From a virus (taxonomy: Duplodnaviria > Caudoviricetes): a stretch of 64,000 bases of DNA. Below, one piece after another: positions 29,019 through 64,000 of the stretch. The stretch covers positions 1,980-65,979 of the IMG/VR virus record IMGVR_UViG_3300037089_000656, one strand, 5' to 3'. Made by a program: the position numbers and the translations under genes. The first letter of the stretch is position 1. Each line of letters starts with the position of its first letter. The notes below the pieces were generated by a model. It was not told the DNA's origin and ran no database searches. It was given only the letters and a program-made list of their open reading frames with translations.

Positions 29019-32000
29019 ATGTCTGAGACTTATAATGGTCAATATGCCCCTGAATTATTTAATGAAGATAAGAGATACTATCTTTTACAAGCTCAAGAGT
29101 TAGCCAACCTTACCGACGCCGAGCTTAGAGACCTTCATCACATATCAAACACATTCAATCGGAGATTTATCCAGGCTCAGGTTGGGGACAGTGCTATTGA
29201 CAATGCATTTAAGATTGTCCAGAATCCTTTAGATAGCGTAAATAATTTTAGGGTTACGGGTGGAGATGGTACTACTCCTGCAGTGATGCACCTTGAAGGT
29301 TTTCGTCTGTATTTAAATGGTAATATTGCTTACAAAGACCAGACGAGTACAGGACCTTTAACTCGAGATGGCTATACAAAAACCACTTTGCCTGCGTTGA
29401 CTGTTCCGAATGGTCCTACATATACCATTACTGATTTAAATTTTCAAACCCCTACTCTTGCCCTTACGAATTTAAGTACTACTTCTCCTTTCTTTTCTTC
29501 TCAAGATTATGGTCGAAATTGGTTGAGTTCAGATGCCTCGACAAACAGTCTTTATGGTGTTTCATTTTTTGATTCGAATAATGGATATGCCGCAGGATCT
29601 AGTGGGGCGGTGCTCCAGACAACTGACGCAGGATTAAATTGGACTCCAGTGACTACAGGCCCTGTTACTAGTTTGAATTTTTTAGATACTGATTTTATAT
29701 CTAATTATGGTTGGGTTGTAGGAGAATCAGGAACAATTCGAGGTTATAATTTAAGTTGGTTTACGGCTACTCCTGTAACTACTTCTGATTTAAGTGGCGT
29801 AACGATTATTGATCAGTTTAATTCCTGGGCTGTTGGATCTTCTGGTGTAATATTAAATTGTGACGATGGAATTAACTGGTTTCAGCAAGCGAGTCCTGTT
29901 GGAACCGGAGATCTTGCCCGAGTTTTTGCTTTAAATGCTAATCTTGTTTTTGCTGTTGGTGATAATGGCGTAGTAGTAAAAACTGTGGATGGTGGAAATA
30001 ATTGGTATTTCCCAGGCCCTACAGGTACTAACGTAGATTTACATGACATCTTTTTTGCTGATGTTCATAAAGGTTGGGCTGTAGGTTCTAATGGTGTTAT
30101 AATTCAGACAGATAATGCAGGTACCACTTGGTTTGATAGTACGATCGCTCCAGGAGTGGACCTAAATGCTGTTATATTTAAAGATACAACAGGGTTTGTA
30201 GGTGGAACGAATGGTGCTATATATAGAACACTTGATGGGACAAATTGGGAGCCTTACCGTACTGACTATGTTTATGTAGATTTTCATCTCGGTGAAGTAT
30301 CAGCTGATACCAGCAGCGAGTACCGTGATCCTGCTTTACTTGATATAGTTGTAGGGTCTCCAAGTGCTAATCGGCTTCGCATTGTCTCCGATATTAAAGT
30401 ATCTGAAGGTTTCCCGAATCCTTCTGATTATTCTCCTGATGGGACAGTTCAGAATCTCACACTTAATATAGCAAAGTTATTAAGACCTGTTGGTCAGTCG
30501 AATATTTTGTCGACAATGATTACAGATACTCGAAAAGTGGTTCGAACTATTTCTGAAATTGATGCCTTGTTTTCTTCTGGTGGAATTGATAGTTCGGCTA
30601 TTGCTGATGGTGCTGTAACGCCTTCAAAGCTTGATATTACGGCTGATTATACTGTGGGCAGCTTGCAGGTTATTAATGATGCAGAGATCCATGGGGATTT
30701 GACCGTAGATGGTGAACTCTTTGTTACAAATATGTCGGCAAGTTTGATTGTTGAGAATCTATTAGTAGATGGGAATTCTCAACTTGGTGATTCTACTGCC
30801 CCTTATGAAGATAGTGTTAAAATTTATGGTAGTGTGAATCATTACCATGACACTACAACACCTGCATACAGCATTGTAGTTGATTCTACCTCGAAAGATG
30901 CTCCTGTTTTTAATATAACTTCGACTGGTACTGGAAGCATTTTCCATATTGAACGTAATTCCTTGGATTCTACTAAGTTTTTGTTTGATGTTACAAACTT
31001 AGGAAAAAGTTATGATTTTAGTATAAATCATCTTGGGACTGAAGGTGGAATATTTAAAATTCGAGATGATGCTAGTCGAGATTCTATCATTATCACTAAG
31101 AATGCTCCAGGATTCCTTGGTTCAGTTTTAAATATTCAAAGTAATAGCGTAAGTCCTTTATTTAATCTTTTTAATCAGGCTTCTTCTCCTTCTGTTACGA
31201 TAAGTGTAGATCAAACCTCAGGAACAATGGTTCGGTTAAATACTAGTTCTGATGCCTCTGGAGTGGTTATTACCTCTCAGGGAGTTGGAAGAGATTTAGT
31301 AATTAATCATCAAGGAACTGCAGGCATTCCTATTGATGTATCCAGTTCAAGTCTTCAAGGATCTGTAAACATTGTTAATACTGCAGGACCTGCTGTTACG
31401 ATTTTCCAAAATGGTGCAAGCCCAGCCTTGTCTGTTAATAAAGACAGGACAGGTCTCTTAGGTGTCGCTCTTGAAGTTTTTAATTGGGGTGATGATGTAG
31501 GGTTAGGGGTTTATAATACAGGTTCAGGAGTTGCTCAGTTAATCTCTCATGTGGGTGACAGCGTTGTTGTTGGTCATGATACAACTAATCCAGGATTAGA
31601 TATTTTTGTAGGCGGGACCGAGACAGGTCCTGCTCTTCGAATAAATAAAGCTAATGATAATTCTGGTGAGGTGGTACGGTTAATAAATCAGGGGTTAAGT
31701 GAATCCTTATTTATTACTCATGACAGAACCGATTCCTCAGCTTCGATGATTAGATTGGATAATAAATCATCGGGTTATGATGTAAGTTCAAATTATTGGT
31801 GGATAGATAATAAAGGAAATTTCTTCACTCTTGGTGATGTTTCTACTTCATTAGTTGCTTTTGATACAACTCATTATTTTAGTGCCCAGAAAATATGGCT
31901 CGATTATACTGGTTTTGATTCTTCAAATCCTGGCATTGCAGGACAAGCCTTTATAGAATCAGGGTTTTTAAGAATAAGTGATGGTAGTGCAACATTACCT

Positions 32001-34451: not shown

Positions 34452-34466
34452 AGGAGCGTTGTTACT

Positions 34467-37400: not shown

Positions 37401-40400
37401 AGTCCCTCAGGAGGTATAGCTCAATCTTCTTTACTGTCCTTAAGTCCTAATCAAACCAGTTTGTTATTTGCTAGAACAGTACCCCTTAATGATACCACAG
37501 CAGGAATTTCTTCGACTTTAAGCCCTACTCCTTACGTGGACATGTCTTCCAATTCAGGTACTGATTATACTTTAGCAAATACTTGGTGGGCATTTAAGTT
37601 TACAACTCCAGCAAGTCCAGCCACTCAAACTTTATCAGCCATAACCCTTGCTATAAAAACTTCTTCTGGAACTATAACCAATAAAGGGTCTGGCTGGAGT
37701 CCTTATATTTACACAGATAATTCTGGATTTCCTGGGACATTGAAAGGTGGTTCCCCTAACGGAAATTTAACCCCTAGAATTTATTATGGTTGGGTAATAA
37801 CTAGTTATCCTAATTTTCCAACATCTAGAATATCTGTTAATACTGGTACTCAGTTAGCTGCGAGCACCTCCTACTGGCTTGTGTTTAATGCAGCTTCTGG
37901 GTTGCCTCAAGGCGTTACTCATATAGTTGATACTACTGTAAGCACTAATGGTGGAGCTTTTTCTTCTGATGGAGTCAACTGGACAAATATAAATAATTCT
38001 TTGAGAATGGTTGTCTATGGCTCAATGGGTTCTGCTATTATAGGTAATTCAATGACAGGAATTGGAGTAAACGCTGCTGGTTATTACGGTAATGCTATTC
38101 AAGCTACTTCTTTCACTGGAAATGCCATATCTGCTACAAGTACGGAAGGTATAGGTTTAAACGTCTCATCTCAATATGGAACAGGTATTTCTGCTTCAAC
38201 TAATTATAATGGTTGGGCGGGTCAATTCATATCTACCGGTGGTGGAGCTATCGATGCTGAACAGTACAACCTTACAGGTAGTGCCTACGATTTGTTATCG
38301 ATGGAAAGAAGTTATTGTATTGATCAGACTCAAAGCATAATTGCTATGTATGAATACCATAACTCGGGTAAACAAGGTCCGATATTTTCGGCTTGGTCAG
38401 CCTTCTATTATTATGACATGGTGGAAAGGGTGCATTTTAATACCCATGTTGTGGATGGTTCTAGTTCCTCTGTAGCACATTGGTTTGATACAGATAACGT
38501 TTTAACAACTATGGGGAGTAAACTTTTCTCAATAAGGAATTCCAGTTCGGAAAAGTTTTACGTAGATTGTTCTGGAAATCTTAGTAGTGCAAGTGTTGTT
38601 GACGCTTCAACTGGTTATACTATTGGGCAAACGGCTCCTGCTGGACATTATCTACGAGGTAATGGCTCTTTTTATGTTGATGCAACGATACAGCTTTCAG
38701 ATCTTCCTATTGGAGCAGGAGGTACTGGTGTTCAAGGAACCACAGGAGTTTCTATACAAGGAGTAACAGGAGCAGATGGAGAAGAAGGGCCGCAAGGAAT
38801 ACAAGGATTTACAGGGGTTTTAGGAGTTCAGGGAGTGACGGGTCCCACTGTTGGCAATACTGGTCTTCAAGGACCAACAGGGGTTGTGGGAACTCAGGGC
38901 GTTACTGGTGCGGCTGGAGCAGGTTTCACAGGACTTCAGGGGATAACTGGAGTTCAAGGCGTAATGGGCGTTACTGGCCCTCAAGGAGCAGGTTTTACTG
39001 GATTACAGGGATTGACTGGAGTTCAAGGTATTGATGGAGTTACTGGAGTCCAAGGATTAGGCCTTACAGGAGTTCAAGGAAATACAGGAGTTCAAGGACA
39101 GACGGGTTTGCAAGGAATTGGTCAGGGTGGAGCAACACTCTTCCCAAATGATAGTACCAATTCTGATTTAACTTCTGCAGGTTATTCTGTACTACAGTCT
39201 AGCCCTACTTCATCAACCTTATCAACACATACTCTAACTCTTAATAGTGGTTCTGGATTAACTGCTTTTGATTCTACTGGGTATGCTACAATTTCCACCT
39301 TTCCTAATATTAACTTGATACCTGGTGGAGATTGGGGTTTTGATGTTTTTGCAGCAACAAGTAATACAGATGGTTCCTCTCAAGTTATAACTAAGATTTA
39401 TAAACGGGATACATCAGGCGTAGAATCATTTTTATTTGACGCTACCCAGTCGATTACGTCAAATACAACAGCAGAATTTGATTATGATATTGTTCAGCCA
39501 GATATTTCATTAAATCCCACGGATAGGTTGGTTGCTAAATATTACGGCTTCGTATCTGGAGGGGCAAATAGAACAATAGCGTATACAACTGGAGCAGCTA
39601 ATAGTTGGTCTCATATACACACTCCTATCGCTTTAACCATTCAAGGTCAAACAGGAATTCAAGGAGTGACAGGATTACAGGGACCTACTGGAGTTCAAGG
39701 TCAAACGGGAATTCAAGGATCCACAGGAGTCCAGGGTCAGACAGGATTACAGGGACCTACTGGAGTTCAAGGTCAAACGGGAATTCAAGGATCAACAGGA
39801 GTCCAGGGTCAGACAGGATTACAGGGACCTACTGGAGTCCAGGGTCAGACGGGACTTCAAGGATCAACAGGAGTCCAGGGTCAGACAGGATTACAGGGAC
39901 CTACTGGAGTCCAGGGTCAAACTGGTATTCAGGGATTAACTGGAGTCCAGGGTCAAACTGGTATTCAGGGATTAACTGGAGTTCAAGGTCAGACAGGATT
40001 ACAAGGTCCCACGGGAGTTCAAGGTCAGACAGGGCTACAAGGGCCCACAGGAGTCCAAGGTCAAACAGGGGTTCAAGGTCAGACAGGACTTCAAGGGCCA
40101 ACCGGAGTTCAAGGTCAGACAGGTCTTCAGGGAAGAACAGGAGTTCAAGGAACTACTGGGTTGCAAGGACCCACAGGAGTCCAAGGAAATACAGGAATTC
40201 AAGGATTAACGGGGGTTCAAGGAAATACAGGATTACAAGGTCCTACAGGAGTTCAAGGAACACAAGGAAATACGGGAGTTCAAGGAAATACAGGTTTGCA
40301 GGGACCGACAGGAGTTCAAGGTCAGACTGGTCTTAAAGGAGTAACAGGAGTTCAAGGAAATACAGGTCTTCAGGGACCCACCGGGGTACAGGGACAGACT

Positions 40401-41171: not shown

Positions 41172-41687
41172 GTGTTCTCAAGCACACTCCATATTTTTAT
41201 GAAAATCATACAGGCTTATGAAGGTATAATTCCCGAAAAAGATTTAAAATGTATTGAGAATATTAGGGTTAATAAACCTGGTAATGTCGAATACGAGTTT
41301 ATTAATTCGATTCCTTTTTTAAATAATTACGAAGACCCTAGAATAGCTTCAGATATTTTTAGATTCCAATTACTCAGTGAGCATGATGATCTTCTATGGT
41401 TGGATTGTGATGTTGAAATAGGCAAATTTGGTTGGTATGATTTCATAGAAAAAGATAAACCTTATTTTGCTTCTATTGTTGGCCATGCTGATGTGTGGGC
41501 TATTTACAATAATGGGTTTAAAGATTACTTTAAAAAGTTATTAACTTTGGCGAAAGAGGGTTATTTTTGTTGGTACTGCCCTTATTTAAGACAGAATAGA
41601 GATAGTTACCATCTTATACCTGAAGGGTATTTTAATCACTACTGTTCCTACACACGTTCTAAAAGTAAAAATAACTTTAAAAAATAG
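41172..41687 (+). CDS. DxD glycosyltransferase-like protein (GT32/TcdA-like motif)
   Basis: ASDIFRFQLL...LLWLDCDV. Confidence 0.6.
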   Translation: MFSSTLHIFMKIIQAYEGIIPEKDLKCIENIRVNKPGNVEYEFINSIPFLNNYEDPRIASDIFRFQLLSEHDDLLWLDCDVEIGKFGWYDFIEKDKPYFASIVGHADVWAIYNNGFKDYFKKLLTLAKEGYFCWYCPYLRQNRDSYHLIPEGYFNHYCSYTRSKSKNNFKK

Positions 41688-41718: not shown

Positions 41719-42336
41719 ATGAATCCAAAAATAATAATACCTGTAAGTAATGAAACTGCTTTATGCGATGAGTGCTTAAAGAGCATTGATCTAATGAGGC
41801 TTGAGGGTTATAAGGTTGTAACACCTAAAAATATAAATCCTGCGGTTGGGATGATTTCAGAGATAGATCTGAACTATAAAGCCCATTTATTTATGGACTC
41901 TGATATTGCTGCTACAGTTAAACATATTAAACAACTTGAGAATTCTGGCTATCCTGTTATTTCTGGGGCCTATACTAAGACGGTTGTTAATGGGGAGCTT
42001 GTTGGTAACACTCTTCATAATAATGCTTTTGTGGCGGGGATATGGGGTTCGAGTGTCGGTTTTATAGGAGGTGTCGTTCCCTGTGATCAAGTCGGTATAA
42101 TACCTGTTGATTGGAGTGGCACTGGATTTCTATATGTCGAGACTTGGGTTTTATCTGATATGGTTGAGAAATGTGATGATCCAATTTTTTATTATAAGAC
42201 TATGACGGCACCACATTTGAGGTTCGGTAAAGAGCAGACATCTTATGACTTAGGTTTTGCTATTAATTGTAGGAAAATAGGTGTTCAAATGTACCTTAAT
42301 TGTGATTGTAAAGTAATACATTTGTTTCGAGAATAA
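41719..42336 (+). CDS. GT2-like (GT-A fold) glycosyltransferase
   Basis: LFMDSDI, VISGAY, WSGTGFLYV, YDLGFAINCRKIG...H. Confidence 0.7.
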   Translation: MNPKIIIPVSNETALCDECLKSIDLMRLEGYKVVTPKNINPAVGMISEIDLNYKAHLFMDSDIAATVKHIKQLENSGYPVISGAYTKTVVNGELVGNTLHNNAFVAGIWGSSVGFIGGVVPCDQVGIIPVDWSGTGFLYVETWVLSDMVEKCDDPIFYYKTMTAPHLRFGKEQTSYDLGFAINCRKIGVQMYLNCDCKVIHLFRE

Positions 42337-42927: not shown

Positions 42928-44636
42928 TTATTTTTTAGAACAGCTATTGATAAATAAATAGCTTGGTTGAACAACTATTTGTTGCCCTCTATAAAGACGG
43001 CTTTTTGAGTAGCTTACATTAAGATATCGTTTCGACCTAGTGCAAGCCACAAAAAAAGCCGATCTTCTTCTGTGGTATCTAAAGATCTAGAATGTGGCCA
43101 TAGATCTTCCTCTACTCCTACTACGAAGACTCTATCAAATTCAAGACCTTTACTCGCATGTGCAGACATGAGCTTAACGCCATATCCATTATCCTGTTCT
43201 ACAAAGGTACTATTAAGAATAAGATCTTCAATAGTTTTAAAACCTGAGGCCACGTCCAGGAAAGACTCTATCATTGTTAGGTCGGATTCTTTATCGAGCA
43301 TTTTACGGTAATCTGTTCTATACAGTACTTCTTGTATGGCTTCTAATGGGGTTTTATGTTGAATATCATTTAAAAGAGTAATTAAAAATCTAATAGGAGG
43401 CATTTCTAAGGATATTTCTTCGAGATAAGCCCAACCTTCTTGCAATAATTTCTCTTGCTTAGCTTCACCGAATCCTCGTTTAGGGGTATTCACTATTCTT
43501 GCTAAACTTTTTACGTCCGATCGATTTAAGGAAGCCTTACAATAGGCGAGTAAGTCTTTTACTACTTTTCTTTGATAGTAAGCAAGAGCTCCGACAATTT
43601 TATAGGGGATTTTTCTTAGGGCAAAGGCTCTTTCAAATAATAGAGATCTACTATTCACTCTAAAGAGAATAGCTGTATCTTCGTGATTATTCATGGTTAA
43701 TAGGGCCTCTGCAATTTTATTGGCTTCATCTTCTTGGCTGAGGAATTGAGTGAAAGATATTTTTCCTACTGTGTTAGACTTAGGCACCATGGGCTTACCA
43801 AATTGTAGAAATTTATTTGCATGAACTATGATCTCGGGGCATGATCGGTAGTTATAGGTTAGGAACATTGCTTGAGCTTTGTGGTCTTTTATGAATTTAT
43901 CTACATTTTCCGGTTTGGCACCGCGCCAACTATACACTGACTGATTCGTGTCACCTACAGTAAATAGGGTTGACGTGCTTGTTGTGTACATTGAGAGAAT
44001 GATTTTATATTGTAGTGTGGAAGTGTCTTGAAACTCATCTACTAAAATATGGCGCCAAAGGTTAGAATAGTAAGTTTTGCAATCTTCGTGTTGTAGGCAG
44101 TCATGGGCCAAGGTAAGTAAATCATCAAAATCGCAGGCATTGTTTTGTTTTAGTATTTCTTGGTATGTGTTGTAGACTAATAAAAAGTCATCCTCAACAG
44201 GTTTTTCACATTCGGATTTTGCTCGACTGATGATGCTTAGATATTCATAAGGATCTCCTATGAGGTTCCTCGATTTAACAATAGTTTTTATAATAGATAA
44301 TTGTTCGCTGTCATCATAGATTGAAAAAGGTGACTTCAGGTGAGTGTGCTCAACAAATTTTCTGATGATACGCATGCACATGCTGTGTATTGTGCTTACC
44401 TGCATATTGGTTATGTCAGCTTTGATCGCTAAACGATCTTTCATCTCCTTAGCTGCTTTATTGGTAAAGGTGATGGCCAAAATATTTTCTGGTTTTACTC
44501 CAGTCCCTATGAGGTAATGTATTTTGGCTATGAGGCATCGAGTCTTACCGCTTCCGGCCGAGGCATTAAGATAGATCGGTGAAGGGGCAAGAATGGCTTT
44601 GAGCTGTTCGTCGTTTAATCCGTAGTTATTATCCAT
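42928..44636 (-). CDS. uvrD: UvrD/PcrA superfamily 1 helicase with a -1 frameshift at a T7 run near 43051-43057
   Basis: ASAGSGKT, TFTNKAA, VDEFQD, GDTNQSVYSWRG, NYRS, HASKGLEF. Motif VI (VACTRSKRYL) continues in the -1 frame to TAA at 42928-42930. Confidence 0.88.
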
Positions 44637-46981: not shown

Positions 46982-48313
46982 ATGGCTCCATCATGGGTCC
47001 AAATTTGTAGTCAACTAGGTTCAGAATCTATTATCTGTGCCATTACTTACGGTGGTAGGTTGTATGCAGGCACAGCAGCACACGGAAATTTATATCGACT
47101 TAATCTGGCTGGTAATGCCTGGGAGCAGGTATGTGCTGAGTTTGGAACTTCTAGTCAGATTTTGTCCCTTGCTGAATATAATGGAAAGTTATATGCAGGT
47201 CCTGCAGGAGGAGCACTTGGAGCTGGGTTGTTACGTCTAAATGATGCAGGAAATGCTTGGCAACAAGTATGTCCAAAGTTCAGTACAGAACTACAAATAG
47301 TTTCACTGTGTGCTTATAATGGTAAGCTTTATGCTGGAACTATTAATCATGCTGATTTGATTAGGCTAAATGATACAAATGATGGATGGGTATCAGTTGT
47401 AGGTCAGTACAACGCCTCCTCTATTTTGCATGTTCTTATTGTTTATAATGGGCATTTATATGGTATTACGAATAAAACAAATGGTGGGGCCCTTCTTCGT
47501 TTAAATGTGACTAATAATGGTTGGGATGTTGTTTGTGATCCGATGTACGGTAATGATAATGCCTGTGGAGCTGCCGTTTTTAATGGCCGTTTATATATAG
47601 GTTGCGTTAAATCTGGTTCGGCTCCTACTGGAGCTTGTGACCTTTTAAAATTAAATGATGCTGGCACGGCTTGTGACCTTGTTTGTCCTCAATATGGTGC
47701 TGAAGGTGCTATCCGTCCCTTTGTATCAAATAATCGATTATATGCAGGTACAGGAAGTCTTACGGCTCCTGGAGGGACTGGACTACTTTTAAGACTGAAT
47801 TTAGCTGGAAATGCTTGGGAACAATTATGCTCTCAATTTGCTTCGGAGACCGTTATCCAGGCCATGGCTGAATATAATGGTAGCCTTTATGGTGGAACTA
47901 GTCCCAGCGGTCTTTTGTTAAAATTTCCTATTTCTACAAGTTCTTTTTCGGACAGCACTGTTGCCGATGGCACTTACACGACATCTTTTATTAATCCTGC
48001 AAGTTTAGTTTCTACAATACAGAGTTCTTCCCCAGATAGCTATTTTGACAGCACTGATAAATTGGGTCAAGTTTATGTCTATTACACTCATCAAGACGGT
48101 CGGCAACAAAAGCGTTTGATACATAATTATGATGGCGCTATTATGCAAGCTCCAGTACACTGGACATCAAATGCTCGTGATGGGACATGGCAAAAGACCA
48201 GTATTGTAGTTTATGATAAAGATGGTGCATACCATGAATTAAGTCGAAGCGTAATAGGTTCTACCGAGGATCTTGATCATACTTCGGGTAATATTTTTTT
48301 AAATGTAGTGTAA
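46982..48313 (+). CDS. beta-propeller repeat protein with shared C-terminal module
   Basis: About seven YNGKLYAG...LLRLNxxxxxWxxVC repeats; C-terminal GTWQKT module. Confidence 0.7.
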   Translation: MAPSWVQICSQLGSESIICAITYGGRLYAGTAAHGNLYRLNLAGNAWEQVCAEFGTSSQILSLAEYNGKLYAGPAGGALGAGLLRLNDAGNAWQQVCPKFSTELQIVSLCAYNGKLYAGTINHADLIRLNDTNDGWVSVVGQYNASSILHVLIVYNGHLYGITNKTNGGALLRLNVTNNGWDVVCDPMYGNDNACGAAVFNGRLYIGCVKSGSAPTGACDLLKLNDAGTACDLVCPQYGAEGAIRPFVSNNRLYAGTGSLTAPGGTGLLLRLNLAGNAWEQLCSQFASETVIQAMAEYNGSLYGGTSPSGLLLKFPISTSSFSDSTVADGTYTTSFINPASLVSTIQSSSPDSYFDSTDKLGQVYVYYTHQDGRQQKRLIHNYDGAIMQAPVHWTSNARDGTWQKTSIVVYDKDGAYHELSRSVIGSTEDLDHTSGNIFLNVV

Positions 48314-48321
48314 GGATTAGC

Positions 48322-51300
48322 ATGAAAAATTTATGGTTGTTGATTTTATTTTTTTCGTTAAATGTGTTTGCAACGAAACATTACATTGATTACTCGACCG
48401 GAGCAGATGGGAGTAATGGTACGTCAACATCTACTCCCTGGGGACATTGCCCTGGTGATAGTGCCTTTACTGGTAGTTTTACTCCAGATGCGGTAAATGG
48501 AGACACGCTATTTTTTAAAGGTGGAGTAACTTATCAGGGGCATATTTACTGTAATTATAACGGAATAAGTGCATCGAAATATTTTACTTATGATGGTAAT
48601 TTATCGGGGTCATGGGGAACAGGACGATCTATACTTGATTGTGGAAATAAGTATCATCAGGGTTTTTATGATAACTCAAATTCTCGTAGTTATATTGCTA
48701 TTTATAATTTCGATGTTCGCAATGTACAACATCAAAATCCTAGTTGGGAAACTCGAGGAATATTTTTTCATGCCGCGAGTACGGGAATAAAAATAGTAAA
48801 TTGCTATGTCCATTATATAGGGAATTGGTCAACCATTAATAGTAGCTGGGGGCAGGATTCTCTTGATGGTTGTGGCATTGCTTTAACATCTCCTACTAAT
48901 GCCAGGATTGAACATAATACTTTTGACACTATAGGTGTTGCAATAGGGTTAAGTGGAGCGATAGGATGCCTTATTGATTCTAATGATGTATCGAGTTGTT
49001 TTTGGGGAATTGAGATGAATGGGGATGCTGGCCCTTGTTATAATGACACAATTCGAAGAAATGTAATACATGATTTGTATATGTTTGATGCTACGGGTTC
49101 GTCTGTAGCTCCATACTGGCAAGGAAAACTTGCTGGTGAAGACCCACATACAGATTTTGTCTTTATAAGGCAAGGGAGTGGCACACACCCTGCCCGAAAT
49201 GTCGTTGAGCAGAATCTTTTCTACAACAATCTCGATTTTGCGAGTACTGTTGGTGGTACGGCCATGATGTTTCTTTCGTATTCGGATTCTAACACAGTAC
49301 GCAACAATGTGTTTATAAACCCTCATTCTTATTATACAATCGAATTTGGCTATGGAAGTTCGTACAATAACATACAAAATAATACGGTATATGCTCCAAG
49401 ATCACTTTGTGGAGCAATTTACTTATATCCCCAGGATGCGGGTAGCCCAACAGAAGGCCCTGGAAATAAAGCTCTTAATAACATATTTTATGTGCCAAAA
49501 ATACTCGAACTAGACTCGGGTAACATGATTGGCGCTCAATTTGACTATAATTATTATTACAGTTCTAATGAGTCTCAAGCCTGGCATAGAACAAGTGCTA
49601 ATTACTATACTTTTGCAGCTTGGAAAACCTATTCCTCACAAGATGCTCACTCTATTTTTAGTAATGATGCTAATAATTTGAAGTTTATTTCGACCACAGG
49701 TTATCCCACAAATTGTACGTCGATGAATTTGAACCTGCAAGGAACCAGTCCAGCTATTAATGTAGGTACAACTATAGCCTCATTTAACGTTGATTATTTA
49801 AATACGTCTCGACCGCAGGGTGCAGCATGGGATATTGGGGCGTATGAATATCAGAATACAGTGACTATTAAAGCGGGTCAGACCTATACGACTCTTTCTG
49901 GTTTAGCAACTGGATACGCAAATAAAGATATGGTCGCAGCGTCGATCGATACTTTTAAAATAGTATGTGATACCAACGATTTAGGTGGGCCTGCCGATTT
50001 TACCGGCTGGAATACTAACTCTACACATGGTGTTAAGATATACCCTTCTGCGGGTCGCAGGCATGCAGGAGTATTTGATGCTACAAAAGCTACGCTTTAT
50101 GGCACAGGATGGTCAGGTTCTCATTTACAAATACCTATAACTAATTTTACCGTTGATGGCCTTCAATTTGCTTTTGCATCTGGAGGGAATACCTATGCAA
50201 TAGAAATTTCATCCGCCGTTGGCAGTAAAAATTATGTCACCAATTGTATTTTTGCGGGTAATGTTAATATGTTTGGTGGCTTGAAGATTGATGCAGCAGT
50301 GTGTAGAGTATGGAATAATATTTTTTACGATTACACTAGTACGGACGGAAGTTCTGGAGGAATACGAGTCGCGTCTTTTGGGCAATCAGATACCCTTTAT
50401 GGTTACAGTAATTCTTTTATTAATTGTTTTGTGGGAATAAATAAGTATGGTTCTTCATTCGCAACCTTTATTAATAATCTTTTGTCTGGTTGCACTACTG
50501 ATATGACCTCTTCGAGTGGGCAAACAAATTTATATTGTGCTTCATCAAATAACAACTCGAAGGGCCTTGATCCTGCTGGAACGGGAAATCGATTCTCTCA
50601 AACATTTACGTTTGTTGCAGGTACAAAAAGCTATTTACTTGCTGGTACTGATGCAGGTGCAAGGAATTTTGGATTGGATTTGAGAGCAGATATACATTTA
50701 CCAGTAACAACTGATATAGTTGGAAATGTTCGAGGTGCAAGTGCTGATATTGGTGCAAGTGAATATGCTGGTGCTGTAACCCTACCCGGCCCTTTATCTT
50801 ATGTTACGAGTCCAGCAGTCTGTACAACCACTGTAGCTTTCTCCCAATCTATCGCAAATGGTGGTGGGGCATGTGATTCTTTTGCTATCACGCCAGTTTT
50901 ATTTGGTGGCCTTTCATTTAATAAAAGTACAGGTGCAATTAGTGGGACTGTCTCAGGTGTAAACGCAAAGGCTGGATTTCTAGTCACTGGCTATAACTCT
51001 GCTGGTACCGCAACATGTTATGATACAATATCTTCAATTCTTAAACCTGCTAGAACATACTACGTTAGAACTGGTGGTAGTGACGCTCACACTGGGCTTG
51101 TTGATAATGATGGTAATGCCAAATTAACTATTCAGGCCGCAGTCAATGCTGCGGGTGTTGGTGATACTGTAGTAATTCACGTAGGTGATTATTCAGCAGC
51201 AGTTCCAACCTTTACTAGTGTTACAGATGGTGTAACCATTAGAGCATATCCAGGTGATTCTGTTAAGACAGCTCGGATACTTATCAATCATAACAGTATA

Positions 51301-52830
51301 AAGATACAACGATTAAAAATTGATGCTTCAGTGCAAACTTATTATACACCAGGACTTTATTTTGTCGGTAATAATTGTAGAGCTGATTCCTGTATATTCT
51401 GGAACGGAGCACAGGGTAATCCAGGATCTACTGCTTTTCGAGTAGCAGGAAAACACGATACTCTTTCAGGAAGTATTGTTGAAGGGACATCTGGAAATGC
51501 TGCCTCGGTTGGTTCAGCTACTACAGGTGGAGCAACCATGACTGATGCCGCTCAAAATTGGTCGGTTAATTCATTGATTGGTAAAAAGATCTACAATTAT
51601 GATTCTAATGCTACCGCTACTATCTCGTCAAATACAGCCACAACCGTTACAGGTGTTCTAAGTAGTGGGAAAAGTTGGGGTGCTGGAAACTATTACGTTA
51701 TTGGATCGACGTATTTTATAGCTATTTTTATCGCTGGTGATAGTGCCGTGATTAAAAATAATATAATAAGGAATATAAGCGATCCAGAACGATTAATGGA
51801 AATTTACGCTATAGGAACTTTATTTACTGGCAATGATGTTGGTACTTTTAGCTGGAGCGGCACAGGTGCAATTCATCCAGACCTTTTTCAAATTGTCGGT
51901 GATACAATTAGCCAGAATCATATTATTGAAAAGAACTTTTTTCATGATGGGAATATTCAAATTGGATTATTTAACTCTTATGGGGATGGTGTAAAATCAA
52001 GTGGCTGGATTTTTAGAAACAATATATTTTGCCATATAAATTCGGATGGGTTTTTTGGTGGTAGAAACACTCAAATATATAATAACACTCTGTTTAGATG
52101 TGCCATAATTAATAGCTCTCCATTCCTTTTTGTTAAGGATGCTGGATCAAATAATGGTACTGGAAGTACTGTATATAATAATATCCTAGTAAGTAATACT
52201 GTAAGTGGATCAACTGGGGTAGTAGATACAGGAGCATACCATTGTCCAGGAGTTACTTATGACTACAATTACTGCTCTTATGTTGATTATAGCACTTGCA
52301 GTTACAGAGAGCCTCATAGTATCAATGGTGGAGACCCAAAATTCGTAGATACAACAGCTCGAAATTTTGCATTACAGTCTTCAAGTCCTTTAAAAACTGG
52401 TGGATTCACCATTCCTGGATGGGTATCTCCAACTGATTATGCTGGATTATCCAGACCACAAGGATCTACATTTTCTATTGGGGCATATGAATTTTCTTCA
52501 CCTCTTTCCGATAGCGTTAAATCTGTATACCCAAGTAAACTTCGCATTGATCAGGCCCCTGTTTCGACTCGTATGGTGACGGTTAAATTACATGGAGTTG
52601 ATAAACCTACCGCGAATACAGTTATATGGTTTGGTGGAATGTCTCTTGGAAAGAATGCTTCTTATACGGACACGTCTGTGACAGACACGGTATTTCGATA
52701 CCCGACAATGGTTTCAGGGTATTATAGGGTTTTTTCTGTAGACCCATCATGGGTACATCAGGTAAGTGATACTTTGCTGAATGGGTGCCAGTTGTTGGTT
52801 CCTTCTGGTACAATTACGAATCCGAGGTAA
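48322..52830 (+). CDS. signal-peptide, multi-parallel-beta-helix protein (pectin-lyase-like fold, DIGAYE repeats, Ig-like domain)
   Basis: N-terminal MKNLWLLILFFSLNVFA; RPQGAAWDIGAYEY, ADIGASEY and FSIGAYEF; N-rich beta-helix ladders. Confidence 0.72.
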   Translation: MKNLWLLILFFSLNVFATKHYIDYSTGADGSNGTSTSTPWGHCPGDSAFTGSFTPDAVNGDTLFFKGGVTYQGHIYCNYNGISASKYFTYDGNLSGSWGTGRSILDCGNKYHQGFYDNSNSRSYIAIYNFDVRNVQHQNPSWETRGIFFHAASTGIKIVNCYVHYIGNWSTINSSWGQDSLDGCGIALTSPTNARIEHNTFDTIGVAIGLSGAIGCLIDSNDVSSCFWGIEMNGDAGPCYNDTIRRNVIHDLYMFDATGSSVAPYWQGKLAGEDPHTDFVFIRQGSGTHPARNVVEQNLFYNNLDFASTVGGTAMMFLSYSDSNTVRNNVFINPHSYYTIEFGYGSSYNNIQNNTVYAPRSLCGAIYLYPQDAGSPTEGPGNKALNNIFYVPKILELDSGNMIGAQFDYNYYYSSNESQAWHRTSANYYTFAAWKTYSSQDAHSIFSNDANNLKFISTTGYPTNCTSMNLNLQGTSPAINVGTTIASFNVDYLNTSRPQGAAWDIGAYEYQNTVTIKAGQTYTTLSGLATGYANKDMVAASIDTFKIVCDTNDLGGPADFTGWNTNSTHGVKIYPSAGRRHAGVFDATKATLYGTGWSGSHLQIPITNFTVDGLQFAFASGGNTYAIEISSAVGSKNYVTNCIFAGNVNMFGGLKIDAAVCRVWNNIFYDYTSTDGSSGGIRVASFGQSDTLYGYSNSFINCFVGINKYGSSFATFINNLLSGCTTDMTSSSGQTNLYCASSNNNSKGLDPAGTGNRFSQTFTFVAGTKSYLLAGTDAGARNFGLDLRADIHLPVTTDIVGNVRGASADIGASEYAGAVTLPGPLSYVTSPAVCTTTVAFSQSIANGGGACDSFAITPVLFGGLSFNKSTGAISGTVSGVNAKAGFLVTGYNSAGTATCYDTISSILKPARTYYVRTGGSDAHTGLVDNDGNAKLTIQAAVNAAGVGDTVVIHVGDYSAAVPTFTSVTDGVTIRAYPGDSVKTARILINHNSIKIQRLKIDASVQTYYTPGLYFVGNNCRADSCIFWNGAQGNPGSTAFRVAGKHDTLSGSIVEGTSGNAASVGSATTGGATMTDAAQNWSVNSLIGKKIYNYDSNATATISSNTATTVTGVLSSGKSWGAGNYYVIGSTYFIAIFIAGDSAVIKNNIIRNISDPERLMEIYAIGTLFTGNDVGTFSWSGTGAIHPDLFQIVGDTISQNHIIEKNFFHDGNIQIGLFNSYGDGVKSSGWIFRNNIFCHINSDGFFGGRNTQIYNNTLFRCAIINSSPFLFVKDAGSNNGTGSTVYNNILVSNTVSGSTGVVDTGAYHCPGVTYDYNYCSYVDYSTCSYREPHSINGGDPKFVDTTARNFALQSSSPLKTGGFTIPGWVSPTDYAGLSRPQGSTFSIGAYEFSSPLSDSVKSVYPSKLRIDQAPVSTRMVTVKLHGVDKPTANTVIWFGGMSLGKNASYTDTSVTDTVFRYPTMVSGYYRVFSVDPSWVHQVSDTLLNGCQLLVPSGTITNPR

Positions 52831-55625: not shown

Positions 55626-55639
55626 AATAATCTTTTAAT
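55626..55639 (+). promoter_or_regulatory. putative late promoter motif
   Basis: AATAATCTTTTAAT upstream of the collagen-fibre operon. Confidence 0.6.
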
Positions 55640-55662
55640 AAGCACTTACATATAATCAATTT

Positions 55663-55796: not shown

Positions 55797-55801
55797 CTTA
55801 C

Positions 55802-57604: not shown

Positions 57605-57612
57605 GGAAACCC

Positions 57613-60600
57613 ATGGCAAGAATTATAAATGGAACACTTTTTGTTAGCTCGTTTACTCCCACTGGGAATCCAGGGGAGTATACTTTTACTAATGCTGTGT
57701 TCGATAATCAGGCCGATGCTACAGGTAATGGCTCATTAGATATACAAATCGGTTTTATCGTCGTTGTTGCTTCTGTTGATCCTAATACTTTTAATCCTGT
57801 TCCAGGAGTTGCTCATAGATATAAGATAACTTCTATCGTTCCTGGATCGAATACGGACGGGGTCCATATTTCGGCAACAATGCTTTGGGATGAAGATGTT
57901 CCTGAAGACGATTTCCCGATGAATGGCTCTTATGCGTTATTAACTGAAGATACAATTAATAGAAAATACAGTTTACCTCCCTCAGATTTGGTTTATGCAA
58001 ATCTTCCAGGTGGTATTGTCGAAGCTGCTTATAATGCAGATATTCGCCATATAACAGATAAAATAGGAGTTACAGGTGTTCAAGGAATTACAGGGCCCCA
58101 AGGTCGAACGGGTCTTCAAGGAGTCACCGGAGTTGCAGGGGGTGGCACAGGTGTTCAGGGAGTTACCGGAGTCGCGGGTGGTGGCACAGGTGTTCAAGGA
58201 GTTACAGGGCCCCAGGGTAGAACTGGAGTTCAAGGAATCCAAGGAGTTACCGGAGTACAAGGTTCTACCGGAATACAGGGCCAGACGGGTATTCAAGGAG
58301 TCACAGGTATACAGGGTCAAACTGGCGTAAATATAGCAACTTTTACGATACAGTCTGGTGCTGATACCTGGCTGCATGAGGATTCTTCTAGTACAAATTA
58401 CGGTTCAGATCCCCTTATGTGGTATGGGTCTGAATTAACGGATGCAAAAAGATCTTTAATAAAATGGAATCTAAATACAATTGCCCCATACTCGGCTATT
58501 GTTGATGCCTCAATAATATTTTATCAAGGGACTTCTCAGAGTGCTGATGTTGATAGTCTTTTTAGAGTTACAAAAACATGGGTTGAAACAACAGCAACTT
58601 GGGTTAGATCCGATTCTTCTAATTTATGGTTTACTCCTGGTGGTGATTTTGACACTACCATGCTGGCCTCTTTTGTTGGCAGTGTAGGCCAAAAGATAGT
58701 TCCTTTAAATCTTGACGGCATAACGGTATTACAAAACATTATTAATGGGACTTATCCAAATAACGGCTTTATAATAGATGCTACTGGCAGTAATAATTCT
58801 GATTATTCGTTGTATACTTTCCAAAATTCAGATACCACAAATCGACCTCGTTTAAGCATTCGTTATTTCCCAGCTGGAGCTCCTGGAACTACAGGAGTTC
58901 AAGGTCAGACAGGTCTTCAGGGGTATACGGGTGCAGGTATTCAGGGCCCAACTGGAGTTCAGGGAACAACTGGACCATTAGGTGGCCCTCCAGGATCTAC
59001 TGGTGTACAAGGAATAACAGGAACATCTGGTGGCCCAACTGGAGTTCAGGGAGAAACAGGACTTCAGGGTCTTACTGGACCCTTTGGTGGGCCTCAAGGA
59101 GACACAGGTTTACAAGGTCCAACAGGAATAATCGGAATACAGGGAGTAACAGGAGCTGATGGTGAAGAAGGTCCTCAAGGAATACAAGGATTAACTGGTG
59201 TACTTGGATTAACTGGAGATCAGGGTACTACAGGAGTTCAAGGTTCGATAGGACCACAGGGTCCTACGGGAGACACAGGTCAGACAGGTATACAAGGAAC
59301 TACTGGAGTTGAAGGTGTAACCGGACTTCAAGGACCGACAGGTGTACAGGGAAATACTGGAGTTCAAGGAAATACTGGATTACAGGGTCCAACAGGAGTT
59401 CAAGGAAGAACTGGAGTTCAAGGATTAACTGGAGTCCAAGGAAATACCGGATTACAAGGTCCCACGGGTTTGATGGGTCCAACAGGAGTTCAGGGGCTTA
59501 CTGGTGTTCAAGGACGTACAGGAGTCCAAGGTCAAACTGGATTACAGGGACCAACAGGAGTCCAAGGTCAGACGGGTCTTCAAGGTTATACTGGAGTTCG
59601 TGGAGTTGTTGGCTATAACATAGGAGCCGCTTATTATCCGCATGATTCTACTGATGTAGATTCGACTGCTTTTTACCAACTACGTAGAACACCTAGTCCC
59701 GATCCTGAGGATATTGAATCTGTTAGTATTACAGCTGGTTCTGGTCAAACACTTTTTAATAGCCAAGCCTATATTAGTCTTTCTAATGACCCTGGAACAG
59801 TCATATGGTCTGGAGGAAATTGGAATTTTTATACCTATGCTTCAGTTGATGATAATTCAGAATATAATGAGGTTTTAATTAAGGTTTTTCGAAGAACTTT
59901 TGATGGAACAAGTAATCTTCTTTTTACTGTAACTACGGGAAATATAACCAGCCTTAATCAGCCCGATCTTTATGTTACCTATATATCAGAACCTGATTTT
60001 TCGGGTGCCGTTGATGATAGACTTGTAGTTAATTATTACGCTTCGACTCAGTCTCTTTCCCCTGTTACTATATCAATGTTTATTGATGGTACAGATCATG
60101 CTTCTCATTTAATGTCTCCTCTTTCTGTTGCCAGCTTACAAGGGTCAACGGGATTGCAAGGCCCTACAGGGGTTCAAGGAATACAAGGTAATGTAGGTCC
60201 AGCTGGAAGTCAGGGAAATACAGGTCTTCAAGGTGGAACGGGTCTTCAAGGTCCAACTGGCGTTCAAGGAGTTCAGGGAAATACTGGAGTTCAAGGAAAC
60301 ACAGGGCTGCAGGGATCAACAGGAGTTATTGGAGTTCAAGGATTAACGGGTGTGCAGGGTAACACTGGAGTACAAGGTCAGACAGGCCTTAGAGGAATTA
60401 CCGGGGTACAAGGTGTTCAAGGAAATACTGGAGTCCAAGGTAATACTGGTGTTCAAGGTAACACAGGTCTTCAGGGACCAACTGGCGTTCAAGGAATTCA
60501 AGGTAATACCGGAGTTGAAGGACATACAGGATTACAGGGAATCACGGGAGTCCAAGGTCAGACTGGAATTCAAGGGGTCACTGGTGTCCAAGGAAATACA

Positions 60601-63600: not shown

Positions 63601-64000
63601 ATTACTGGAGTTTTCGGAACTTCGGGAGGTACTGGTGTTCAGGGAATTCAAGGAAACACAGGAGTCCAAGGTAATACAGGACTTCAGGGGCCAACAGGAG
63701 TACAAGGTCAGACCGGGCTACAAGGACCCACAGGAGTCCAGGGTCAGACAGGTTTACAGGGACCAACAGGAGTTCAGGGACAGACAGGATTATTTGGAGT
63801 AACGGGCGTTCAGGGAAATACCGGGGTACAAGGACAGACAGGTTTACAAGGTCCAACTGGAGTTCAGGGAATTCAAGGAAATACTGGGGCTCAGGGTTAT
63901 ACAGGTCTTCAGGGATCTACAGGAGCAAATCGACATACAACCTTGTTTGATATGCCTGATTCTTCAGGTGTTATTACAGATCATGATGTTCGATTAGTAG
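57613..64000 (+). CDS. giant collagen-like fibre protein with DNRLRE/CBM96-like domain; runs off the right edge (absent from the ORF track)
   Basis: AAGGA SD and ATG 57613 (MARIINGT...); I saw no in-frame stop before 64000. Contains ADTWL...TNYG...RSLIKWNL...WVETTATW...RPRLSIRY and long Gly-X-Y tracts. Confidence 0.85.
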   Translation, partial: MARIINGTLFVSSFTPTGNPGEYTFTNAVFDNQADATGNGSLDIQIGFIVVVASVDPNTFNPVPGVAHRYKITSIVPGSNTDGVHISATMLWDEDVPEDDFPMNGSYALLTEDTINRKYSLPPSDLVYANLPGGIVEAAYNADIRHITDKIGVTGVQGITGPQGRTGLQGVTGVAGGGTGVQGVTGVAGGGTGVQGVTGPQGRTGVQGIQGVTGVQGSTGIQGQTGIQGVTGIQGQTGVNIATFTIQSGADTWLHEDSSSTNYGSDPLMWYGSELTDAKRSLIKWNLNTIAPYSAIVDASIIFYQGTSQSADVDSLFRVTKTWVETTATWVRSDSSNLWFTPGGDFDTTMLASFVGSVGQKIVPLNLDGITVLQNIINGTYPNNGFIIDATGSNNSDYSLYTFQNSDTTNRPRLSIRYFPAGAPGTTGVQGQTGLQGYTGAGIQGPTGVQGTTGPLGGPPGSTGVQGITGTSGGPTGVQGETGLQGLTGPFGGPQGDTGLQGPTGIIGIQGVTGADGEEGPQGIQGLTGVLGLTGDQGTTGVQGSIGPQGPTGDTGQTGIQGTTGVEGVTGLQGPTGVQGNTGVQGNTGLQGPTGVQGRTGVQGLTGVQGNTGLQGPTGLMGPTGVQGLTGVQGRTGVQGQTGLQGPTGVQGQTGLQGYTGVRGVVGYNIGAAYYPHDSTDVDSTAFYQLRRTPSPDPEDIESVSITAGSGQTLFNSQAYISLSNDPGTVIWSGGNWNFYTYASVDDNSEYNEVLIKVFRRTFDGTSNLLFTVTTGNITSLNQPDLYVTYISEPDFSGAVDDRLVVNYYASTQSLSPVTISMFIDGTDHASHLMSPLSVASLQGSTGLQGPTGVQGIQGNVGPAGSQGNTGLQGGTGLQGPTGVQGVQGNTGVQGNTGLQGSTGVIGVQGLTGVQGNTGVQGQTGLRGITGVQGVQGNTGVQGNTGVQGNTGLQGPTGVQGIQGNTGVEGHTGLQGITGVQGQTGIQGVTGVQGNTGLQGPTGVQGRTGTQGIQGVTGVQGNTGLQGPTGVQGQTGSQGLTGVQGQTGLQGATGVAGFTGLQGPTGVQGQTGIQGLTGTQGNTGVGATGYTGLQGITGVDGTTGVQGSTGVAGSTGLQGPTGVAGSTGLQGYTGVQGSIGSQGNTGLRGFTGVRGDTGVQGQTGVQGQTGVQGQTGLQGPTGVQGLTGVQGQTGVQGNTGVQGSTGLQGPTGVQGNTGVQGNTGVQGSTGLQGPTGVQGQTGLQGPTGVQGQTGLQGNTGVQGNTGVQGQTGLQGPTGVQGQTGLQGPTGVQGVTGVQGQTGLQGLTGVQGQTGLQGPTGVQGQTGLQGPTGVQGIQGNTGVQGQTGLQGPTGVQGIQGNTGVQGNTGVQGQTGLQGPTGVQGVQGNTGVQGQTGLQGATGVQGQTGLQGPTGVQGQTGVQGTTGVQGQTGLQGPTGVQGQTGLQGSIGVQGQTGLQGPTGVQGVQGQTGVQGQTGLQGVTGVQGQTGLQGPTGVQGQTGLQGVTGVQGQTGVQGQTGVQGQTGLKGVTGVQGNTGVQGQTGLQGPTGVQGQTGLQGPTGVQGQTGLQGLTGVQGSTGLQGLTGVQGIQGNTGVQGQTGFQGLTGVQGQTGVQGSTGLQGPTGVQGLTGVQGNTGVQGQTGLQGPTGLQGPTGVQGLTGVQGNTGVQGQTGLQGPTGVQGLTGVQGAGFTGLQGLTGVQGQTGFQGLTGVQGAGFTGLQGLTGVQGLTGSQGPTGVQGQTGFQGVTGVQGQTGFQGFTGVQGQTGLQGPTGVQGQTGLQGPTGVQGQTGLQGSTGVAGQTGLQGPTGVQGQTGLQGLTGVQGIQGNTGVAGQTGLQGPTGVQGQTGLQGPTGVQGQTGIQGLTGVAGQTGLQGPTGVQGIQGNTGVQGQTGLQGVTGVQGQTGLTGPTGVQGLTGVQGQTGLQGITGVFGTSGGTGVQGTQGNTGVQGQTGLQGPTGVQGQTGLQGITGVFGTSGGTGVQGTQGNTGVQGQTGLQGITGVFGTSGGTGVQGIQGNTGVQGNTGLQGPTGVQGQTGLQGPTGVQGQTGLQGPTGVQGQTGLFGVTGVQGNTGVQGQTGLQGPTGVQGIQGNTGAQGYTGLQGSTGANRHTTLFDMPDSSGVITDHDVRLV
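60142..63924 (+). repeat. ~3.8-kb 9/18-bp-period degenerate repeat encoding (G-V/L-Q-G-x-T)n
   Basis: Continuous ggagttcaagg/acagga-type units. Confidence 0.9.

Follow-up and report, generated by a model that had tools for sequence, protein, structure and literature searches.

An enzyme-substrate pair consisting of a glycosyltransferase (GT) and a collagen-like protein is already known from the spores of Clostridioides difficile. The enzyme, SgtA, comprises 358 amino acids with a GT-A domain (amino acids 1-260) followed by four tetratricopeptide repeats (TPR; amino acids 262-358), is encoded immediately upstream of bclA3, and transfers β-O-linked N-acetylglucosamine (GlcNAc) in vitro from UDP-GlcNAc onto the Thr (and Ser) residues of collagen-repeat peptides (PMC7157674). 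Where that paper deals with the BclA3 glycan, the enzymes extending it are described as unidentified in C. difficile. The first-pass annotation of the window (64,000 nucleotides, representing bases 1980-65979 of the virus record IMGVR_UViG_3300037089_000656, which is 65,979 bases long) drew on this literature, with which its account agrees as far as PMC7157674 treats it, when it proposed that a phage glycosylates its own long collagen-type fibres. Central to this proposal is a gene coding for a GT2-TPR-GT9 fusion protein, open reading frame (ORF) 44692, ORFs being named here by their first base. Based on comparison with homologous loci and on analogy with SgtA, we consider it rather probable that the phage O-glycosylates its own collagen fibres.

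The SgtA-like part of ORF 44692 (GT2 and TPR; amino acids 114-460) resembles SgtA in the order of a GT-A/GT2 domain and TPR within ~350 amino acids, in the location of its gene near collagen-like genes with Thr at the Y position of the Gly-X-Y triplets, and in its full-length identity (33%) to a collagen-adjacent GT2-TPR protein of Clostridium. SgtA proper is likened to it by its published description and not by aligned sequence, a point that belongs with the reservations gathered below. Unlike SgtA, the GT of the window would belong to a huge phage rather than to a spore former, is joined to a GT9 domain (in its relatives also to a methyltransferase), and is encoded 3.5-8.8 kb from the collagen genes instead of immediately upstream. 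The collagen proteins are, furthermore, 3-6 times longer than those of the C. difficile system and are built of G-V/L-Q and G-x-T triplets rather than GPT.

To our knowledge, glycosylated virions have so far been recognized for few phages, and self-glycosylated collagen only from eukaryotic giant viruses. Mimivirus has collagen-repeat proteins and glycosylated surface fibres, and its L230 protein is a bifunctional lysyl hydroxylase/glucosyltransferase. The likeness to the window lies in a large virus encoding both collagen-repeat proteins and an enzyme, here a candidate, that glycosylates them. Mimivirus differs in infecting eukaryotes, in attaching the sugar to hydroxylysine and in using an unrelated enzyme family, and the window revealed no lysyl hydroxylase. 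The collagen-repeat tail fibres of phages represented in the PHROG database are matched by four ORFs of the window through their collagen regions, whereas more than 500 triplets in one gene and a linked GT are absent from those annotations.

A further GT with TPR, GmaR of Listeria monocytogenes, adds GlcNAc to flagellin, its TPR being thought to hold the substrate (PMC9638930), and the claim that GT2 enzymes with TPR are protein glycosyltransferases is thus accurate for GmaR. The latter shares with ORF 44692 the order of GT domain and TPR, and is the closest solved relative of its GT2 domain, but acts on flagellin, has an antirepressor domain, and is without a GT9 domain or a collagen neighbour. 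Mycobacteriophage GTs modify the capsid and tail-tube subunits of their own virions, with the glycans located on C-terminal extensions (Freeman et al. 2023, cited in PMC12619734). This corresponds to what is proposed for the phage of the window, in that phage-encoded GTs act on structural proteins of the same phage, but the account given in PMC12619734 describes no collagen repeats or TPR-GT9 fusion. Finally, in the cuticle collagen of Riftia pachyptila it is glycosylated Thr at the Y position, and not hydroxyproline, that stabilizes the helix (Mann et al. 1996, cited in PMC6953826). Although this is an extracellular matrix protein of an animal and the enzymes are unrelated, it provides a physical rationale for the glycosylation of a proline-poor GXT helix.

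The fusion glycosyltransferase and the collagen genes

The ORF 44692 protein contains a GT2 domain (PF00535; amino acids 116-209; e-value: 8.6e-20), TPR_1 and TPR_2 repeats directly behind the catalytic domain (amino acids 297-395; e-value: ~1e-13) and a GT9 match (PF01075; amino acids 552-713; e-value: 2.9e-9; 37.0 bits against a cut-off of 22) within a domain spanning amino acids ~465-747. The GT2-TPR-GT9 architecture read from its translation in the first-pass annotation is thus recovered by Pfam. Amino acids 114-460 align with amino acids 3-360 of a 361-amino acid GT2-TPR protein of Clostridium (33% identity; e-value: 8e-48), whose gene is followed, after 28 nt, by one coding for a 475-amino acid GXT collagen protein, which by gene order is the sgtA-bclA3 arrangement. 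The residues D146, D193, D195, D196, C705, C708, C722 and C728 are invariant in 20 homologues of ORF 44692, and an acidic DxD-type metal/nucleotide-sugar site is present in the GT2 domain. Judged by sequence match to the PDB, the solved proteins closest to the GT2 part are GmaR (e-value: 3e-28) and the peptide S-glycosyltransferase SunS (e-value: 1e-14), both of them protein or peptide glycosyltransferases.

Most relatives of the fusion enzyme are ~870 amino acids in length and carry an additional N-terminal methyltransferase domain, of which only a stub is found in the window. Such a relative is encoded on G004, a 469,617-base contig with direct terminal repeats that is rated complete, where the orthologue (58% identical; L004:10001-12628) combines a Methyltransf_23 domain (amino acids 77-213) with GT2, TPR and GT9. 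The stub in ORF 44692 (amino acids 1-110; window 44692-45020) consists of a Cys-rich CxxC...CxxC segment and the end of the methyltransferase domain. At the other end of the protein, the GT9 domain (window 46804-46875) terminates in the pattern CxxC-x(7-13)-C-x(5-7)-C, as does that of a second gene, ORF 9988 (10945-11004), and the four Cys residues of the latter are kept in its G004 orthologue. On this pattern the GT9 domains may contain a metal site. The protein heptosyltransferase TibC has an iron-binding Cys cluster, and PDB searches with the GT9 domain returned TibC (e-value: 0.57) and the lipopolysaccharide (LPS) enzyme WaaC (e-value: 0.69) at values that leave the protein and LPS types inseparable.

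Four genes with Thr-rich collagen repeats of the G-V/L-Q-G-x-T form had been noted in the window, and these are upheld both by their PF01391 matches (Table 1) and by triplet counts. Runs of at least five triplets in the four fibre ORFs yield 830 triplets, with Thr (368; 44%) and Gln (359; 43%) at the Y position and Val (255), Leu (153), Pro (92) and Gln (92) at the X position, on which counts the motif is real and far beyond chance. Proline makes up ~4% of the residues of the fibre proteins. Fibre protein 1 combines an N-terminal BNR/Ycf48-like propeller region with collagen runs between amino acids 998 and 1288 and a C-terminal globular part, and is 54% identical to a G004 orthologue which likewise follows the terminase gene. 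Two collagen stretches (amino acids 1432-1552 and 1727-1996) separated by a globular insert are found in fibre protein 2, while fibre protein 3 has collagen runs from amino acid 63 to 408 and then a C-terminal globular domain. Fibre protein 4 comprises 516 collagen triplets, the longest unbroken run (amino acids 1089-1688) accounting for 200 of these, and harbors a CBM96/disaggregatase-like insert (amino acids 243-416). At the triple-helix rise of 0.286 nm per residue, the 200-triplet run would extend over ~170 nm, and all 516 triplets, if arranged as one helix, over ~440 nm (0.44 µm). A globular insert of ~170 amino acids between collagen segments is common to two of the proteins, with 32% identity over 329 amino acids including the flanks (BlastP), at amino acids 1436-1722 of ORF 34467 (window 38772-39644) and 515-838 of ORF 57613 (59155-60126).

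The fibre ORFs match PHROG 'tail fiber' and 'collagen like minor tail' families, such as phrog_6320, phrog_5073 and phrog_1806 (the last being 'collagen like minor tail'), through the repeats only, and it is for this reason that we infer, rather than observe, their place on the virion as fibres, a coat or whiskers. None of the four proteins has a BclA-type terminal domain, Pfam giving only Collagen, PSII_BNR, CBM96 and Disaggr_repeat. They are like BclA as candidate glycosylation substrates, yet by their domain content are not members of the BclA family.

Association of glycosyltransferase and collagen genes

The first-pass annotation had proposed to test whether the GT and collagen genes co-occur across related jumbo phages, and in a part of the loci they do. 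A search of viral contigs with the single ORF 44692 sequence returned nothing, and loci were found once an alignment of homologues was used, giving 80 GT-centred loci. A collagen ORF is located within 10 kb of the GT in 28 of these, compared with none of 76 control loci, equal in size and centred on the terminase gene (1.5 Mb in total), from related huge phages whose terminases are 33-42% identical to that of the window (Fisher p = 5.4e-10). Merging of near-identical loci leaves 23/66 against 0/64 (p = 2.4e-8); the loci are related by descent, so both p-values are optimistic, and the control covers the terminase neighbourhood only, two reservations which add to those listed below. Among the viral contigs of at least 30 kb, 23/35 have Pfam collagen matches, and in 15 of the 23 contigs holding both genes the GT lies less than 10 kb from the nearest such match. 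A within-contig placement test on these 23 contigs shows the GT to be nearer to collagen than a random position (Fisher combined p = 7.5e-4), which also holds when limited to the eight contigs of at least 150 kb (p = 0.012).

The nearest complete relative illustrates this arrangement. In G004 the terminase gene is followed by a collagen fibre gene, uvrD, the GT gene and then a collagen ORF of 3081 amino acids which starts 0.6 kb past the GT, and the only two collagen ORFs of this 470-kb genome flank the GT within 13 kb. Synteny with the window extends from the primase through the terminase (68% identity), the collagen fibre (54%), UvrD (58%) and the GT (58%) to the long collagen ORF. Metagenome loci contain collagen in 15/80 cases, many of the loci being short, and two close relatives of the window in this set (L258 and L259) have a collagen ORF of the Thr/Gln type downstream of the GT, at a distance of 0.2 kb in the former and 2.5 kb in the latter. 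A cultured jumbo myovirus, Tunturi_5, codes for a 367-amino acid GT2-TPR protein (gp35; 29% identity; e-value: 8e-30) at a distance of 3.7 kb from an annotated tail fibre of 1469 amino acids (gp29) with GPT/GAT collagen repeats and a CBM_5_12 domain. A tblastn search of the phage collection with the GT sequence matched 54 records, none of which covers 80% of the query.

The same pairing can be observed in bacteria. With the GT alignment as query, 80 loci were obtained from bacterial and archaeal genomes, 32 of which contain a collagen ORF within 10 kb, and in 25/80 it is on the same strand within 1 kb of the GT match. The share with collagen follows similarity to the query, with 4/6 for the full-length GT2-TPR-GT9 forms, 18/21 for the best loci with GT2-TPR only (L104-L124), 9/20 for L125-L144 and 1/33 for L145-L177. 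Full-length GT2-TPR-GT9 homologues (28-32% identity), of prophage or bacterial origin, were seen on contigs of proteobacterial metagenome-assembled genomes (MAGs), one of them 1.3 Mb in size (L099-L103), where the adjacent collagen ORFs are of the Thr/Ala type and very large (up to 1619 amino acids with 885 collagen residues).

The proposed glycosylation of the Thr-rich fibres by the phage enzyme is thus well supported by comparison, since its GT2-TPR part is a full-length homologue of collagen-adjacent, SgtA-sized proteins in Clostridia and since viral GT loci are strongly associated with collagen ORFs, while the glycosylation itself and the virion location stay at the level of what is inferred. 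The phage would make at least four trimeric collagen-type fibre proteins with ~4% proline and with Thr closing every second triplet. Inside the infected host cell, unfolded or folding (nascent) collagen chains would be bound by the TPR part, and the GT2 part, with Mn2+ or Mg2+ held by the DxD site, would attach a first sugar, donated by a UDP-sugar, to the hydroxyl group of the Thr residues at Y. By analogy with SgtA and GmaR this sugar would most likely be β-O-GlcNAc derived from UDP-GlcNAc. The fused GT9 domain would then probably add a second sugar, and in the relatives the N-terminal methyltransferase domain, a stub in the phage of the window, would methylate the glycan. The predicted product is densely O-glycosylated virion collagen fibres, a set of four chains offering up to 368 Thr sites. 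The sugars would give stability to a triple helix that is free of hydroxyproline and/or have a role in adhesion or shielding. Substrate, sugars, order of steps and fibre location are putative throughout. Observed directly are the repeats, the domain order of ORF 44692, its homology to GT2-TPR proteins encoded beside collagen genes, and the association of GT and collagen genes in the genomes.

Several observations weigh against glycosylation of the fibres by ORF 44692. No collagen ORF lies within 10 kb of the GT in 52 of the 80 viral loci, so that the association with collagen, which does appear in the remaining loci, does not extend to every relative carrying the GT. Likewise, 48/80 bacterial loci are without collagen in this range, and 12 of the 35 viral contigs of at least 30 kb, most of them fragments, have no collagen match at an e-value of 1e-6 or below. 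The nearest collagen is ~20 kb from the GT in three large records and 234 kb from it in one. In the window itself the GT gene starts 3.5 kb after one collagen gene and ends 8.8 kb before the next, with a helicase gene on the opposite strand and other genes in between. Collagen ORFs located far from the GT in the same phages likewise typically have Thr at the Y position, which therefore constitutes no specific evidence for glycosylation. The use of Thr-type collagen as a marker of GT-proximal genes was rejected on the same grounds, the distant collagen ORFs being mostly of the Thr type too. The word 'collagen' does not occur in the Tunturi paper, where the GT is entered as an auxiliary 'moron/AMG' gene, and in PHROG the family of ORF 44692 is labelled 'beta-1,4-glycosyltransferase, moron/host takeover'.

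No published link between a phage GT and collagen fibres was found in open-access papers and preprints, and the presence of an SgtA-type pair in huge phages, the fusion to GT9 (and methyltransferase), the size of the collagen genes and the broad association in phages seem to be undescribed. If true, glycosylation of the fibres would mean that protein O-glycosylation reaches the surface of huge phages through an SgtA-like enzyme tied to giant collagen fibres, would explain the stability of proline-poor GXT helices, and would provide a testable function for a GT family now annotated as 'host takeover' or 'LPS heptosyltransferase'. The pairing of GT2-TPR and collagen genes is widespread in Bacillota and many phage lineages, and as such bears on spore-surface and phage-host recognition, and is relevant to the design of glycosylated bacterial collagens. 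A cultured and harmless model for a direct test is the Tunturiibacter phage Tunturi_5, which encodes both a GT (gp35) and a collagen tail fibre (gp29). We further suggest, as a tentative and on balance doubtful extension, that several huge-phage lineages possess a self-contained 'glyco-collagen' module, made up of fibre proteins bearing Thr in hundreds of collagen triplets and of one methyltransferase-GT2-TPR-GT9 protein, which would act on them as an assembly-line enzyme that primes, extends and methylates an O-glycan, yielding sugar-stabilized, hydroxyproline-free virion helices of up to about half a micrometre. The SgtA-type GT/collagen pair would then be one mobile unit, and phage fibres and the exosporium hairs of Bacillota would be evolutionary relatives.

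Other candidate substrates

An alternative explanation, which we regard as unlikely, holds that the GT2-TPR-GT9 enzyme modifies a different protein, such as a capsid or tail-tube subunit or the flagellin or pilin of the host, and that its nearness to collagen reflects a shared late or accessory module. GmaR, the best solved relative, does act on flagellin rather than collagen, the 52 viral loci without nearby collagen fit such a substrate, and in the window the surface-type ORFs 46982, 48322, 52785 and 54399 are located nearer to the GT than the collagen genes are. Capsid and tail-tube glycosylation has, furthermore, been reported for mycobacteriophages, as cited in PMC12619734. The closest bacterial GT2-TPR homologues are, however, the collagen-adjacent ones, as is evident from the top-ranked (18/21) and low-ranked (1/33) loci, and the order of GT and then collagen is kept in G004, L258 and L259. 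The control loci of related phages (0/76) argue in addition that collagen is not simply common in such regions.

A second explanation, that the GTs remodel the host envelope (LPS core, O-antigen or a cell-wall polymer) to block superinfection or alter receptors, and that the collagen genes code for unrelated tail fibres, appears to us distinctly improbable. The best-known activity of GT9 enzymes is the transfer of heptose to LPS, a further point against a role in fibre glycosylation, and the GT9 domains match LPS heptosyltransferase models best, both in NCBIfam (TIGR02201, e-value: 9.8e-9; TIGR02195, e-value: 3.8e-15) and in the PDB (1psw). PHROG assigns the GT2 family to the class 'moron, auxiliary metabolic gene and host takeover', and the ORF 9988 GT9 gene is part of the replication module and unlinked to collagen in G004, both of which are also compatible with envelope remodelling. 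The NCBIfam heptosyltransferase scores, however, all fall far below the family cut-offs (for example 34.7 against 170 and 18.6 against 200), and the domains could not be equated with a named LPS heptosyltransferase (WaaC/F/Q) or with the autotransporter heptosyltransferases Aah/TibC. The GT2-TPR module resembles SgtA and is soluble, its translation showing no evident membrane segment, and is fused to GT9 in 37-odd viral loci and in bacterial loci with collagen neighbours. Envelope remodelling would also leave the statistical link to collagen unexplained.

We know of no GT2-TPR protein that acts on DNA, and glycosylation of hypermodified phage DNA against restriction by one or more of the GTs, which could concern at most ORF 41172, itself of weak family assignment, is highly improbable, no hydroxymethylase or TET gene being seen in the window. 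The points that speak for it are a nucleoside 2-deoxyribosyltransferase-like gene at 6849-7310, a TET-associated glycosyltransferase family on 27% of the members of one ESM Atlas cluster of ORF 41172 look-alikes, and the statements in PMC10202952 and PMC12619734 that phage GTs are often DNA-modifying.

Further glycosyltransferase candidates, neighbouring genes and phage context

Three additional GT genes had been proposed in the window (Table 1). The GT9 family assignment of ORF 9988 holds, with heptosyltransferase II (1psw; e-value: 2e-6) as its PDB match, and an extra domain of ~150 amino acids is present at the C-terminus. A tie of this gene to the fibres is not indicated, as the G004 orthologue (63% identical), located at 177 kb, is 50-65 kb from the collagen cluster; no further relatives beyond G004 were found.

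Table 1. Features of the window discussed in the text
Feature	Coordinates	Strand	Evidence and remarks
GT9-family glycosyltransferase, 502 aa	9988..11496	+	PF01075, e-value: 3.4e-11; 43.4 bits against cut-off 22
Terminase large subunit	27029..28936	+	phrog_17415, e-value: 1e-16; phrog_9; directly upstream of first fibre gene
Collagen fibre protein 1, 1810 aa	29019..34451	+	PF01391, e-value: 3e-21
Collagen fibre protein 2, 2229 aa	34467..41156	+	PF01391, e-value: 1.5e-52
Small ORF, 171 aa; candidate minimal DXD glycosyltransferase	41172..41687	+	DxD-type motif, ESM Atlas look-alikes; weak
Small ORF, 205 aa; candidate GT-A-fold protein	41719..42336	+	phrog_1574; weak
UvrD-type helicase	43014..44636	-	PF00580, e-value: 5.6e-67; same place in G004, 58% identity
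Fusion glycosyltransferase, 747 aa	44692..46935	+	Pfam GT2, TPR and GT9
Repeat-rich protein, 443 aa, paralogue of ORF 52785	46982..48313	+	BlastP, 38% over 431 aa
Protein of 1502 aa without collagen repeat	48322..52830	+	NCBIfam choice-of-anchor Q domain, e-value: 8e-20
Paralogue of ORF 46982, 532 aa	52785..54383	+	BlastP
Protein of 395 aa	54399..55586	+	C-terminal domain common to ORFs 46982 and 52785
Collagen fibre protein 3, 621 aa	55739..57604	+	PF01391, e-value: 7e-43
Collagen fibre protein 4, >2129 aa	57613..63999	+	PF01391, e-value: 2e-226; open at window and contig end

The descriptions of ORF 41172 as a 'DxD' and of ORF 41719 as a 'GT2-like' glycosyltransferase are not sustained by any curated family, neither ORF having a Pfam or NCBIfam match (Pfam even at e-values of up to 10), and the two genes are not kept beside the collagen genes in G004. 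In the equivalent interval of this genome (L004:4814-5984; 237.8-239.0 kb), genes for ThiF-like (e-value: 2e-23) and JAB-like proteins are found instead of the small GT candidates, and may represent a ubiquitin-like conjugation pair. Relatives of ORF 41172 point to a start at its tenth codon and thus to a protein of 162 amino acids. Within its family of 170 representatives, D71 shows no variation and conservation of R55, D69 and H147 reaches at least 90%, the residues of the signature SDxxR...DxD (S51, D52, R55, D69 and D71) being conserved. A single one of 70 members matches PF04488/PF05704 (PF04488 at 1.1e-4), 11 other single-member Pfam matches look like noise, and the family profile gives only non-significant PDB hits (e-values: 0.06-0.09), to toxin-type GT-A domains. 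GT32-like look-alikes in the ESM Atlas provide a lead, and a search of viral contigs with the four-sequence alignment recovered no loci of this family.

For ORF 41719 the sole PHROG match is phrog_1574 (e-value: 7e-10), a family with unassigned function. Its structural look-alikes in the ESM Atlas partly carry GT2 (TM: 0.75-0.80), which again serves as a lead, while alignment of the ORF 41719 pair to a GT2-containing alignment with hhalign gave no match (probability 0.3%). Comparison of the small ORFs against phages by tblastn yielded no hit for ORF 41172 and one weak hit for ORF 41719 (e-value: 5e-3), annotated as Mnn9-like. The AlphaFold2 models are poor, with pLDDT values of 45.4 for ORF 41172 (four-sequence alignment) and 35.0 for ORF 41719 (two-sequence alignment). 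The two ORFs are as such weakly supported GT candidates.

Between the fusion GT and fibre protein 3, the ORFs 46982, 52785 and 54399 have in common a C-terminal domain of ~100-125 amino acids (57% identity over 125 amino acids between ORFs 46982 and 54399; BlastP), for which no family match was obtained, and may represent alternative fibre tips or adaptors. Repeated 'YNGxLYAGT'-like units can be observed in the full-length paralogues 46982 and 52785. The former, for which Pfam and PHROG gave no match, is probably another fibre or adhesin component. The ORF 48322 protein lacks a Pfam or PHROG match, and displays a signal-peptide-like N-terminus (MKNLWLLILFFSLNVFA...), beta-helix-type repeats and two 'choice-of-anchor Q' domains. 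A secretion signal is unusual for a protein encoded in a phage structural region.

The terminase large subunit, by its family matches, marks the record as that of a tailed phage. The record had been ascribed to a jumbo phage, to which its own length of 65,979 bases does not testify, but an exact copy of the ORF 44692 protein is also encoded on a contig of 474,422 bases. This contig and the size of G004 indicate indirectly that the window derives from a huge tailed phage of ~470 kb, of whose late region it forms a part. The long ORFs of the window are almost all on the plus strand, no tRNA gene was found in it, and its first 29 kb code for replication-type functions, including a Mre11-like phosphoesterase, a Toprim primase, a VWA protein and a nucleoside deoxyribosyltransferase-like protein. 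The closest GenBank phage terminases are those of a 485-kb uncultured phage (34% identity) and of the cultured 309-kb myovirus Tunturi_5 (28%), compared with 68% for that of G004, and megablast comparison of positions 20000-29000 with the phage collection gave no match. The terminase search also recovered a large clade of huge phages (L181-L256), on contigs of up to 618,736 bases and with terminases 33-42% identical to that of the window, in which no collagen gene follows the terminase; the order of terminase and then collagen is particular to the close relatives of the window. A GT 59% identical to that of the window is encoded on an 8-kb contig binned into a MAG of candidate division KSB1 (L098). 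This contig probably represents phage DNA that was assigned to a bacterial bin, and might hint at a host without being evidence for one.

On the minus strand, at positions 20203-23316, three genes with homologues in G004 are located between a sigma-like gene and the terminase gene. Their products include a VWA-domain protein (Pfam; e-value: 8e-10) and a 411-amino acid protein with a collagen-like run of nine triplets.

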